Shown here one piece after another: positions 35,888-39,329 of a stretch of DNA of 64,000 nt. Made by a program: the position numbers and the translations under genes. Origin of the DNA: Escherichia coli (lineage in GTDB: Bacteria > Pseudomonadota > Gammaproteobacteria > Enterobacterales > Enterobacteriaceae). How positions within the stretch are numbered: the stretch's first letter is position 1; the number at the start of each line of letters is the position of its first letter. The notes under the pieces are model-generated. The model made no database searches and had not been told where the DNA came from. It was given only the letters and a program-made list of their open reading frames with translations. The DNA lies in assembly GCF_003334385.1 (NCBI RefSeq), contig NZ_QOWN01000004.1; one strand, given 5' to 3'.

Positions 35888-36349
<462 letters not shown>

Positions 36350-36369: not shown

Positions 36370-36404
36370 AAAAACGCCGACCATTGGTCGGCGTTTTGCT
36401 TTTG
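36370..36404. terminator. bidirectional intrinsic terminator between rplI and the accessory operon (stem acgccgacc/ggtcggcgt; T-runs on both strands)
   Basis: 9-bp GC-rich stem flanked by AAAAA upstream and TTTTGCTTTTG downstream. Confidence 0.8.
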
Positions 36405-36460: not shown

Positions 36461-37432
36461 TTACTTAGCTGCCTGAATATCAGCCAGCATTGGGGCAAGG
36501 GCTGGGTTGTCCTTAGCGAAGTTTGCGTACATTGGCTGTACTTTCTCGATAAACGGAGCTTTATCTACCTGGTAGACTTTCACGCCCATTTTATCCAGTT
36601 TTGCAAATTCTTGTTTCTCTTCCTCGCTCCACAAGTCTTTCATGTAGCTCATTGATTCTTTAGCTGCTTTTAATATAACTGCCTGATTTTCCTGGCTAAG
36701 TTTATCAAACGCAGCATTGCTCATCAGAACCACATCGGGAACCATAGTGTGTTCGTCAAGGCTGAAGGATTTTGCCACTTCACCGTGACGCATGGTAGTC
36801 AGCGCCATCACGCTGTTTTCTGCCATATCGACCACACCCTGCTGTAAGGCTGTATACAACTCGCCGTAATCCAGTGGCGTCGGGTTACCGCCCATGACTT
36901 TGATCATTTCAACTGCGCCAGGGCTTGGCTGGACACGGACTTTCATGCCTTTCAGATCGTCTGGTTTCAGTACTGGTTTATTGCCATAGAAACTGCGGGC
37001 GCCTCCATCATAAAAAGTCAGCCCGAAATAACCTTTGCTTTTCGTTGAGTCGAGGATTTTTCTCCCGATATCGCCCTGCATGACCTGATAATAATGATCA
37101 CGATCGCGGAACAAATAAGGCAGGCTAAATAATTTATAGGAATTTTCAAATGCTTCCATTTCTGCCGCATTGGTTTTTACCAGGGGAATAGCGCCAGAAC
37201 GAATCAGCTCCATTGTTTCTCGTTGAGTACCCAATGTTCCATTTGGATAAATACGAATAGTAATATCACCGTTAGAGTACTCTTTGCTCTTTTTCGCAAA
37301 GAACTCCATCGCTTTATGAACAGGATGAGACTTATCCTGATTATGACTCAGTTTTAATGTCACTGCCCAGGACTGGCTTGCGGATAACATAAGAACAGCA
37401 CCGATAATGCCAGCGGATACTTTTATTTTCAT
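36461..37432 (-). CDS. TRAP transporter substrate-binding protein (DctP family), signal peptide present
   Basis: ORF track; 323 aa; N-terminal signal peptide MKIKVSAGIIGAVLMLSASQSWA; DctP-like periplasmic solute receptor; AAGGA SD 8 nt upstream. Confidence 0.85.
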   Translation of the reverse strand: MKIKVSAGIIGAVLMLSASQSWAVTLKLSHNQDKSHPVHKAMEFFAKKSKEYSNGDITIRIYPNGTLGTQRETMELIRSGAIPLVKTNAAEMEAFENSYKLFSLPYLFRDRDHYYQVMQGDIGRKILDSTKSKGYFGLTFYDGGARSFYGNKPVLKPDDLKGMKVRVQPSPGAVEMIKVMGGNPTPLDYGELYTALQQGVVDMAENSVMALTTMRHGEVAKSFSLDEHTMVPDVVLMSNAAFDKLSQENQAVILKAAKESMSYMKDLWSEEEKQEFAKLDKMGVKVYQVDKAPFIEKVQPMYANFAKDNPALAPMLADIQAAK

Positions 37433-37484
37433 AGATGTTCCTTTTCTAATAAATATGGCGGCAGGTGCCGCCAGTGAATGCGCA

Positions 37485-38786
37485 TCAGTAGCCCAGTGCT
37501 CTTGGCAATGCCATACTGATTTGCGGAATATAGGTCACCATTGCCAGCACCAATACCATCACGGCATAGAATGGCAGCATAGGTTTGATAATTTTATTAA
37601 TCGGTAATTTAGATACACTACAACCGACAAATAACACACTGCCTACAGGCGGAGTACAAATACCGATACACATGTTCAGTACCATGACAATACCAAAGTG
37701 AATCGGGTCCATGCCCAGTTCGGTGACAACCGGTAAAAATATCGGCGTAAAAATCAGTACCGCCGGTGTCATATCCATAAAAGTGCCGATAATCAACAGG
37801 ATAATATTGATAATAAGCAGGATTATTATTGGGTTGTCAGAAATAGTGTTAAGCAAATCGAGAATCAGGAAGGGAACGTCAGCGTTTGACATTGCCCATG
37901 ACATACCCATCGAAGAACCAATTAATAACAAGACAATTGCAGTGGTAATAACGGATTCCAGAAATATTTTAGGTAAATCTTTAACTGAGATTTCACGATA
38001 AAGAACCAGTGCAAGGAAAAGGGTATAAATTACTGCAATTGCGGAGGCCTCTGTCGGGGTAAAAATACCACTTAATACACCCCCCATAATTAAAATAATC
38101 AGGAAAATACTGGGGATAGCCATCCATATCGCAACGCCAGCCTGGCGTAAAGTCGGGCGTTCTGGCTTTGGATAACCGCGACGTACCGCGATAATACCGG
38201 CTATTACCATCAGTGCCAGACCCAGCAAAATTCCCGGAACATAACCCGCCAGGAACAGTGCGGCAATAGAAGTACCACCACTGACCAGTGAATAGACGAT
38301 TAACGTATTACTTGGTGGAATAAGCAAACCCGTCGGGGCAGAGGCAACGTTAACCGCAGTACTGAATGCCGGGTCGTAACCCTCTTTAACCTGTTGCGGA
38401 TGCATGACGCCGCCCATCGCAGCCGCCGAAGCCACGGCTGAACCAGAAATTGCCCCGAACAGCATATTGGCGAGAATATTACAGTGGGCAAGTGAGCCTG
38501 GCAGACGACCGCCGAGAATACGGGCAAAGTTGATTAATCGTCGCGCTATTCCTCCATGGTTCATAATGTTGCCAGACAAGATAAAAAATGGGATTGCCAA
38601 CAACGTAAAACTATCTAACCCGGAGGCTAACTTTTGGGAAACCACACTCAATGCTGAGTTGAAATCGAGTTGTGTGGAAATTGATGCCAGTGTCGATAAA
38701 CCAATGGCATAAACAATAGGTACACCTAATGCCAACATAAAAAAGAAGGCACCAAATAACACAATAATCGGTAACCAGTAATCCAT
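37485..38786 (-). CDS. TRAP transporter large permease (DctM family)
   Basis: ORF track; 433 aa highly hydrophobic polytopic protein; GGAG SD upstream. Confidence 0.85.
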   Translation of the reverse strand: MDYWLPIIVLFGAFFFMLALGVPIVYAIGLSTLASISTQLDFNSALSVVSQKLASGLDSFTLLAIPFFILSGNIMNHGGIARRLINFARILGGRLPGSLAHCNILANMLFGAISGSAVASAAAMGGVMHPQQVKEGYDPAFSTAVNVASAPTGLLIPPSNTLIVYSLVSGGTSIAALFLAGYVPGILLGLALMVIAGIIAVRRGYPKPERPTLRQAGVAIWMAIPSIFLIILIMGGVLSGIFTPTEASAIAVIYTLFLALVLYREISVKDLPKIFLESVITTAIVLLLIGSSMGMSWAMSNADVPFLILDLLNTISDNPIIILLIINIILLIIGTFMDMTPAVLIFTPIFLPVVTELGMDPIHFGIVMVLNMCIGICTPPVGSVLFVGCSVSKLPINKIIKPMLPFYAVMVLVLAMVTYIPQISMALPRALGY

Positions 38787-38828
38787 AATTTCTCCATTCC
38801 TACTATGGTTGGTTGTTGTTTGTTATCT

Positions 38829-39329
38829 TTAGAGTGGTTGTTTAAGTTCGGTTAAAACCATATCTATGGTGTATATAATAATAAGTACACCACTAATCGG
38901 GATGCTCATATAGATATATCCCATTTGCCAGCCTAAAGCGGGCGAGGTCTGACCTGAATCGAATGTATCCATCGTTAATAGCCCACCACCATATACCATA
39001 ATGATGGTTGCGAAGATAATAACGATAATCTGAATACACAAAAATAAATGACGTCGGGCTTTTCCTTTCAGCATCATAGGTAGCAGGTCAATCGCCAGAT
39101 GCCGGTTTTGCCCTGCGGTGTATGCCCCACCAAAAAGTCCAAGACAAATAAAGAGCAAACGGCTGAGTTCATCTGTAAAAATACTGGGACTAGTAAATAT
39201 AAATCGTGCAGCCACCTGCCACGTCACACATGCCACGATGATCGCCAAAATGGTAATGTTCAATGCTGCAAGCAGAGCATTAATAGATCTAATTATATTT
39301 CGCATAGTGATTAACCTTTGCAATATCAT
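38829..39329 (-). CDS. TRAP transporter small permease (DctQ family)
   Basis: ORF track; 166 aa, four hydrophobic helices; ATG overlaps stop of the upstream gene (ATGA); alternative start ATG at 39305. Confidence 0.7.
   Translation of the reverse strand: MILQRLITMRNIIRSINALLAALNITILAIIVACVTWQVAARFIFTSPSIFTDELSRLLFICLGLFGGAYTAGQNRHLAIDLLPMMLKGKARRHLFLCIQIIVIIFATIIMVYGGGLLTMDTFDSGQTSPALGWQMGYIYMSIPISGVLIIIYTIDMVLTELKQPL

Follow-up and report, generated by a model that had tools for sequence, protein, structure and literature searches.

What does an abrupt fall in GC content inside an operon tell us about where the DNA came from? The question is raised by a 64-kb stretch of the Escherichia coli chromosome (the window), in which nine genes lie between rplI and ytfB, eight on the minus strand and one, encoding a TetR regulator, divergent from them. 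The segment under study, 36461-39329, holds the genes of a predicted tripartite ATP-independent periplasmic (TRAP) transporter, dctP, dctM and dctQ, and it is AT-rich. Next to it are five enzyme genes of ordinary GC that encode a FrdA-like flavoprotein, a coenzyme A (CoA) transferase, a crotonase, a TIM-barrel protein and a short-chain dehydrogenase/reductase (SDR). Strain 190 (NZ_CP020520.1) is 100% identical to the window across the region. Since only short gaps separate them, the genes on the minus strand read as one operon of eight that would start in the SDR/TetR intergenic region and carry the transporter genes last. We consider it probable that the TRAP cassette is an exchangeable transporter module at the distal end of an older, resident catabolic operon, swapped by homologous recombination.

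The evidence for such a swap comes from variation at this slot within E. coli. In a survey of 5,426 complete E. coli genomes, the TRAP segment was found in 1,446, while 1,685 had an unrelated major facilitator superfamily (MFS) transporter in the same slot, adjoining the same five enzyme genes and TetR. Some of the MFS-type genomes also carry yjfZ or a HipBA-like gene pair next to rplI. The remaining genomes match only ~14% of the query and seem to be without the operon through loss, and those that we sampled (K-12 J53, O157:H7 and others) have yjfZ and a 5'-truncated TetR gene, which is the ytfA of K-12. On the left, the homology between TRAP and MFS haplotypes stops at 36403/36404, just past the rplI terminator. 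The right breakpoint is in the flavoprotein gene, where mismatches are dense to 39569 and fade by ~39680. Comparison of the flavoproteins of TRAP and MFS haplotypes (BL21, L006) gives 95-100% identity as far as residue ~613 and 50-70% from there on. The GC step therefore appears to coincide with a recombination junction between segments of separate histories.

Divergence within E. coli also differs on the two sides of this junction. Compared with the window, the TRAP-type strain 2014C-3075 differs at 19 of 3,167 sites in the TRAP segment (0.60%) and at 272 of 5,685 sites in the enzyme block (4.78%), a contrast of about eight-fold in this one strain pair (Fisher p = 1e-32). In keeping with this, the enzyme block of the window is nearer to that of the MFS-type strain BL21 (98.15%) than to that of the TRAP-type 2014C-3075 (95.2%).

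The compositional contrast that raised the question is equally clear. With a GC content of 0.437, 36461-39329 is the lowest ~3-kb stretch of the window and lies within the lowest 1.1% of all of its 2,869-nt windows (mean 0.516, sd 0.027). For dctP, dctM and dctQ the GC is 0.445, 0.445 and 0.411 and the GC at third codon positions (GC3) is 0.457, 0.442 and 0.396. The five enzyme genes (39326-45384) have GC 0.50-0.54 and GC3 0.50-0.56, and the flanking rplI and ytfB have GC 0.498 and 0.551, respectively. When genes are pooled, the TRAP GC of 0.441 compares with 0.527 for the enzymes (z = -7.6) and 0.529 for 44 core genes of the window (z = -9.0), and the TRAP GC3, also 0.441, with 0.531 (z = -4.5) and 0.582 (z = -8.3). 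Karlin codon bias relative to the core genes of the window is 0.345 for the TRAP genes and 0.169 for the enzymes; here we used pooled values only, because the per-gene measure varies so much with gene length that it cannot rank short genes. The computed GC, GC3 and codon usage thus confirm the original prediction, made by eye, that the TRAP genes are AT-richer than the enzyme genes and the flanks. The haplotype-specific stretch of low GC does not stop at the TRAP genes but covers roughly the last 250-350 nt of the flavoprotein gene as well (GC 0.396 at 39326-39570), and at the other end of the block the TetR gene is equally AT-rich (GC 0.395, GC3 0.398).

The lowest equal-length window without overlap, at 19762-22630 (yjfI-yjfM), has a GC of 0.449, with yjfI itself at GC 0.386 and GC3 0.41. 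The reference strain has these genes annotated in the same place, and we treated this second-lowest ~3-kb stretch as core; a low GC is thus not enough to identify accessory DNA.

If only the transporter slot is exchanged, the rest of the block should be found at the same place in relatives, and it is. TetR and the five enzyme genes are present at the rplI-ytfB locus in E. marmotae, Salmonella, Klebsiella oxytoca, K. huaxiensis and a Jejubacter-like enterobacterium. The Salmonella and Klebsiella contexts came from exact-protein look-ups; a scan of contigs by flavoprotein alignment gave mostly distant relatives, and neither of these two genera, among the matches listed. In E. albertii, the contig (L009) ends inside the flavoprotein gene with the flanks outside view, and a short contig from an unidentified enterobacterium (L097) ends just past an EamA gene, with the rplI flank partly visible. 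The enzyme and TetR proteins of the window are 86-98% identical to those of E. marmotae and 77-92% identical to those of Salmonella and Klebsiella, as would be expected under vertical descent. The suggestion that the whole block was acquired horizontally is therefore not supported. In K-12, ytfA (L007, 2087-2488) is a 5'-truncated remnant of the TetR regulator of the operon, and the K-12 locus that we examined (J53) retains a 102-nt relic of the SDR gene, 81% identical to window positions 45194-45295. Based on these remnants, differential loss of the operon in the K-12 and O157 lineages fits better than gain.

The occupant of the slot changes from genus to genus around these conserved genes. 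E. marmotae has one type of MFS transporter (type 1), Salmonella enterica and K. oxytoca have another (type 2), and K. huaxiensis, the Jejubacter-like enterobacterium (L098) and the unidentified enterobacterium (L097) have TRAP transporters. The two MFS types are only 51% identical, while their partner enzymes are 78-93% identical, from which it follows that the slot has received a new occupant at least three times. The junction between TRAP and MFS in Klebsiella falls at about flavoprotein residue 481, rather than at about 613 as in E. coli, which argues for an independent swap event. The C-terminal ~210 residues of the flavoprotein (~481-693; window 39326-39970) are hypervariable among genera, with 40-65% identity as compared to ~90% for residues 1-480, and both mapped crossovers lie inside this part.

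The original prediction proposed comparing transporter and enzyme phylogenies, and in neighbor-joining trees with 500 bootstraps the two are discordant across the Enterobacteriaceae with 94-100% support. The enzyme tree groups K. huaxiensis with L097 (100%). The TRAP tree instead groups K. huaxiensis with the Jejubacter-like enterobacterium (100%) and E. coli with L008 and L097 (94%). The ratio of TRAP to enzyme protein distances is 0.8-2.2 within the enterics and 0.46 to a complete TRAP-plus-enzyme cluster in a Rhodocyclaceae bacterium (L091), whose TRAP proteins are 65-86% and enzymes 42-62% identical to those of E. coli. Together, the MFS replacement in 1,685 genomes, the mapped breakpoints, the divergence of 0.6% versus 4.8% and the discordant trees support the idea that the block was assembled from two sources, in the sense of two histories.

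By the usual signs of a genomic island, the locus gives a mixed picture. Its composition is atypical, its distribution is patchy (1,446/5,426) and its phylogeny is incongruent for the TRAP segment only. Signatures of mobility are missing: we found no flanking direct or inverted repeats at the locus and no mobility genes annotated there, and there are no true plasmid copies of the segment, as the three "plasmid" matches are records of 0.37-4.8 Mb.

Our proposed mechanism is as follows. The rplI-ytfB block would be a TetR- and CRP-controlled catabolic operon, long resident at this locus in the Enterobacteriaceae, in the order SDR, TIM-barrel protein, crotonase, CoA transferase, FrdA-like flavoprotein and transporter. 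Only the promoter-distal transporter slot would be exchangeable, holding DctQMP here, an ACS-family MFS transporter in other E. coli and a second MFS transporter in Salmonella and K. oxytoca. A swap would proceed by homologous recombination, with one crossover in the conserved end of rplI and the other in the variable C-terminal part of the flavoprotein gene. All three transporters would probably import one and the same sugar-acid-like carboxylate, with TRAP perhaps as the alternative of high affinity that depends on a binding protein. As for the low GC, it may come from the life of the cassette as a circulating accessory allele, possibly one that originated in a lower-GC lineage, and would not mark a recent arrival.

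The last point depends on how the composition behaves in other lineages. TRAP GC3 is about 0.08-0.17 below that of the enzymes in five enterobacterial lineages (E. coli, L008, L097, K. huaxiensis and the Jejubacter-like enterobacterium) and tracks host GC. In the window, the ranges are 0.40-0.46 for the TRAP genes and 0.50-0.56 for the enzymes; in L097 they are 0.54-0.58 and 0.55-0.68, in K. huaxiensis 0.43-0.52 and 0.62-0.71, and in the Jejubacter-like enterobacterium 0.60-0.71 and 0.76-0.79. In the Rhodocyclaceae cluster both are ~0.80, so there is no lag. The TetR gene lags even more than the TRAP genes, with a GC3 of 0.37-0.58 that is well under that of the enzymes in every genus examined. 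Because all five TRAP lineages show the lag, as does TetR despite its vertical inheritance, AT-richness is weak evidence of recent foreign origin. What low GC points to here is DNA that is accessory and exchangeable, or that stays AT-rich for the sake of regulation, and not recent import.

Several observations weigh against parts of our reading, and they bear on alternative explanations of the low GC. With a lag in all five lineages and in TetR, composition alone is no proof of foreign origin, and the alternative MFS segment (GC 0.445) is about as AT-rich as the TRAP segment. No donor lineage was found: the nearest non-enterobacterial relative of DctP (76%) is from a GC-rich betaproteobacterium, and outside the enterobacterial and Rhodocyclaceae clade the nearest relatives, in Vibrionaceae, Psychromonas, Providencia and Aeromonas, are 55-61% identical, the AT-rich Vibrionaceae ones included. 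Since a TRAP transporter is used in the closest complete outgroup cluster, that of the Rhodocyclaceae, the enzymes could have been paired with TRAP from the start and have received the MFS genes later in its place. Only family membership underlies our assignment of substrate and pathway chemistry. Some of these points would be expected if the AT-richness were intrinsic or actively maintained and TRAP were the ancestral transporter of the cluster, the low GC being held by a persistent force. Such a force might be AT-biased mutation acting on an accessory allele of low frequency, where selection or biased gene conversion is weak, or it might be selection for the binding of H-NS. The lag that follows host GC speaks for this view, as do the syntenic TetR, which is 87-96% identical between genera and still has its low GC3, the pairing of TRAP with these enzymes already in the Rhodocyclaceae, and the fact that every occupant of the slot next to rplI is AT-rich, with yjfZ at GC 0.42-0.43 and the HipBA insert at 0.42-0.45 in addition to the MFS segment. 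However, it leaves unexplained the discordant trees, the eight-fold difference in divergence between TRAP segment and enzymes within E. coli and the mapped MFS replacement. We regard it as possible but doubtful; it is compatible with a cassette swap and competes only with the claim that low GC points to a foreign donor. It is far less probable that the low GC merely reflects the amino acid composition of membrane proteins, rich in Leu, Ile and Phe, with no evolutionary meaning. DctM and DctQ are polytopic membrane proteins, and GC1 shows the biggest gap of any codon position (0.497 for TRAP versus 0.621 for the enzymes), but GC3, which is largely independent of amino acids, is low too, and the soluble periplasmic DctP matches DctM in AT-richness. 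Elsewhere in the window, GC3 is high in core genes for membrane proteins (ulaA 0.685, cycA 0.652, ytfF 0.637, paeA 0.629), and the same TRAP genes are GC-rich (GC3 ~0.8) in the Rhodocyclaceae. Amino acid composition thus contributes to the low TRAP GC without explaining all of the deficit, and the GC3 results led us to reject it as the only cause.

The original prediction further held that the transporter module may be silenced by H-NS, as xenogeneic DNA. The segment is a candidate target, since a GC of ~0.44 in a genome of 0.52 is in the range preferred by H-NS, and in enterotoxigenic E. coli (ETEC) H10407 the occupancy of H-NS is reported to be inversely correlated with GC (PMC4287617). In addition, 8 of 13 promoter-like hexamer pairs lie in the TRAP segment, which makes up 30% of the scanned region, and the AT-rich spacer between yjfZ and ytfA in K-12 was flagged "HNS" by genomic SELEX (PMC3946193). 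Set against this, the total of 13 promoter-like sites is no excess over the shuffled expectation of 14.8 ± 3.7, the K-12 spacer is not homologous to the promoter region of the window, and the operon encodes a dedicated TetR repressor. The TRAP genes are also distal in an operon whose promoter is bound by CRP in vivo in a strain with the TRAP haplotype. That strain is H10407, which carries the same haplotype as the window and has a high-confidence CRP peak, "ETEC_4557/ytfA", at the operon promoter in chromatin immunoprecipitation sequencing (ChIP-seq) (PMC4287617). The CRP site of the window, TGTGATCACTATCGCA, located 92-107 nt upstream of the SDR start codon, is identical to the H10407 site under this peak; given the perfect match, the operon appears to be catabolite-controlled, and CRP occupancy argues that the promoter is not fully occluded. 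Transcriptional silencing of the TRAP genes by H-NS is therefore a tentative proposal that we would not favor. Less likely again, in our opinion, is a reading in which TRAP and MFS form a long-lived polymorphism across Escherichia and Klebsiella under balancing selection, with AT-richness functionally maintained (for example by H-NS-dependent control) rather than the trace of a fading import. Under balancing selection, one allele may serve to scavenge the substrate with high affinity and the other to take it up with low affinity and high capacity. The substrate, which would be a cyclic or polyhydroxy carboxylate, may enter an uncharacterised CoA-dependent pathway under CRP control, built on an SDR/TIM-barrel/FrdA-like core that may also be present in Rhodobacteraceae, Planctomycetota and Lentisphaerota.

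In our preferred reading, a transporter cassette exchanged at the end of a resident operon, the alternative transporters would carry the same compound, and their families are consistent with this. DctP matches TIGR00787 with 246.5 bits (cut-off 175) and NF037995 with 251 bits (cut-off 50), and its N-terminus, MKIKVSAGIIGAVLMLSASQSWA, judged by eye, is a putative signal peptide. DctM matches TIGR00786 with 458 bits (cut-off 268). DctQ has a weak match to YiaM (E = 6e-9) and is annotated in RefSeq as "TRAP transporter small permease", and PF04290 (DctQ) is found in the dctQ orthologues of L088, L097 and L098. With DctP and DctM matches and an adjoining DctQ, the system is predicted to be a TRAP transporter of the DctP type (Transporter Classification 2.A.56). 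The nearest solved relatives of DctP, at E = 1e-68 to 1e-71 to PDB chains, include 4N8Y and 4X8R, which were solved with bound galacturonate and glucuronate, respectively (PMC11668362). A 61%-identical homologue in Vibrio lies amid uxaC, uxuA, a beta-glucuronidase-type GH2 gene, kdgK and eda. Both MFS types match TIGR00893, the D-galactonate transporter subfamily of the ACS family. As all three interchangeable transporters belong to sugar-acid families, we infer that they may be analogous replacements for one carboxylate substrate.

The enzyme families (CoA transferase, crotonase, SDR, TIM-barrel protein and FrdA-like flavoprotein) point to a CoA-thioester route. A search of the literature on the function of the cluster, covering TRAP genes at rplI/ytfB, CoA transferase with crotonase, FrdA-like protein with CoA transferase, and the ETEC locus tags, found nothing, the one relevant item being the table of CRP ChIP-seq peaks, and no characterised pathway with this enzyme set was found in the literature. 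For the flavoprotein, there is no sequence-detectable solved relative at E <= 1e-10. A quinate- or shikimate-type substrate is a speculation of ours, reasoned from six-membered-ring carboxylates and CoA-dependent dehydration and reduction. In the neighborhoods of flavoprotein homologues (37-59% identity), among the matches listed, a trio of SDR, TIM-barrel and FrdA-like genes or an SDR-flavoprotein pair recurs. We noted the trio or pair in Brenneria, Pseudescherichia, Mangrovibacter, Phytobacter, Betaproteobacteria, Planctomycetota, Lentisphaerota and Verrucomicrobiota, with CoA transferase and crotonase often missing, and many loci in Rhizobium and Rhodobacteraceae have a flavoprotein homologue without the trio. 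The SDR/TIM-barrel/flavoprotein combination looks like a widespread, uncharacterised enzyme module.

The coordinates of the genes and other features of the region are collected in the following table. The hairpin between dctM and dctP could be an intra-operon attenuator or an mRNA-stabilising structure.

Features of the rplI-ytfB region, in window coordinates
Feature	Position	Strand	Remarks
rplI	35900-36349	+	left flank of the block
rplI intrinsic terminator hairpin	36371-36397	+	all haplotypes (TRAP, MFS, yjfZ, HipBA) diverge directly after it
Haplotype-specific AT-rich segment	36404-39570	-	TRAP cassette and last ~80 flavoprotein codons; GC 0.435
dctP, TRAP substrate-binding protein	36461-37432	-	323 aa
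GC-rich hairpin followed by T-rich tract	37456-37473	-	between dctM and dctP; terminator-like by pattern only
dctM, TRAP large permease	37485-38786	-	433 aa
dctQ, TRAP small permease	38829-39305	-	158 aa (RefSeq); longest open reading frame starts at 39329
FrdA/SdhA-like FAD-dependent oxidoreductase (flavoprotein)	39326-41407	-	693 aa; residues ~614-693 part of the swapped segment
Fused family-I acyl-CoA:acetate/3-ketoacid CoA transferase	41404-42945	-	513 aa
Enoyl-CoA hydratase/isomerase (crotonase) family protein	42955-43731	-	
Xylose-isomerase-like TIM-barrel protein	43741-44583	-	AP_endonuc_2; annotated as sugar phosphate isomerase/epimerase family
SDR oxidoreductase	44593-45384	-	NCBIfam PRK12745; first gene of the predicted operon
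CRP site	45476-45491	-	SDR/TetR divergent promoter region; identical to the ETEC H10407 site under the ChIP-seq peak
TetR/AcrR regulator	45597-46244	+	divergent; full-length form of K-12 ytfA; GC 0.395
ytfB	46228-46866	-	right flank of the block

Some further variation at and beyond this locus was seen in E. coli. In 2014C-3075 and ecoli019 (L095 and L096), whose TRAP segments are >99% identical to the window, the TetR and ytfB alleles (window 45385-46866) have only 75-81% DNA identity to it, and those of E. marmotae are nearer (90-93%). The divergent alleles at the ytfB end suggest introgression or an ancient allele. Several strains have the TRAP genes, or else the MFS gene, interrupted by IS1, suggesting occasional inactivation of the transporter. 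In about 1,100 genomes without the cassette, another TRAP substrate-binding-protein gene is found elsewhere (for example in ST131, at ~0.73 Mb), with ~79-81% identity to dctP over 120-150 nt, and belongs to a separate paralogous TRAP system. One E. coli record (L090, CP125919.1), with a DctP seemingly 86% identical to that of the window, was set aside, as its many frameshifts and an identity that varies from 70% to 100% bin to bin suggest a low-quality assembly.

Pairing of one set of catabolic enzymes with unrelated uptake systems is familiar from other sugar acids. Sialic acid nan clusters use NanT (MFS), SiaPQM (TRAP) or an ABC system, and hexuronates are taken up by ExuT (MFS) or by a TRAP system. 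The locus described here resembles these in having conserved enzymes with alternative TRAP and MFS transporters from sugar-acid families. It differs in that the alternatives segregate within one species at one chromosomal site, and in that the breakpoints are mapped, one of them inside a neighboring enzyme gene. YiaMNO, the TRAP system of K-12 for 2,3-diketo-L-gulonate, is likewise a DctP/Q/M-type sugar-acid system inside a catabolic operon and gives the best NCBIfam equivalog matches, at 290.6 bits for DctM and 36.5 bits for DctQ, where the cut-offs, 800 and 260, are far higher. Unlike YiaMNO, the window system is at a different locus with different partner enzymes, and it would be a paralogue. 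The hexuronate-binding proteins (4N8Y, 4X8R and the Vibrio homologue in the uxaC-uxuA-kdgK-eda neighborhood) are among the nearest relatives of DctP that have been solved or that come from outside the enterobacteria. The enzymes that accompany DctP, however, are not those of the Ashwell uronate pathway: two of them depend on CoA (CoA transferase, crotonase) and a third is a FrdA-like flavoprotein. DctP therefore probably binds another cyclic or polyhydroxy carboxylate. Horizontally acquired low-GC islands silenced by H-NS (the Navarre/Lucchini model) share with the TRAP segment an atypical GC and codon usage, a patchy distribution among strains and phylogenetic incongruence. Unlike them, the segment has no integrase, tRNA target, IS element, flanking direct repeats or plasmid copies, is only 3.2 kb long, lies within an operon and appears to be exchanged by homologous recombination, and its AT-richness is old and common to several genera.

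Modular replacement of transporters and compositional mosaics are well known as a kind. As far as we could find, this locus, its breakpoints, the three-way turnover of the slot and the persistent AT lag are undescribed in the literature, although they are not surprising. The locus offers a quantified case in which a GC step inside an operon appears to mark a real recombination junction and yet should not count as evidence of recent import, since the lag is seen in one genus after another and in a regulator with vertical inheritance as well. The K-12 pseudogene ytfA would be explained as a remnant of the regulator of a lost operon. Finally, these genes would constitute a catabolic operon, so far uncharacterised and widespread (~58% of complete E. 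coli genomes), with a published CRP ChIP-seq site and interchangeable transporters of sugar-acid type, and the DctP protein may be a convenient handle on its substrate.

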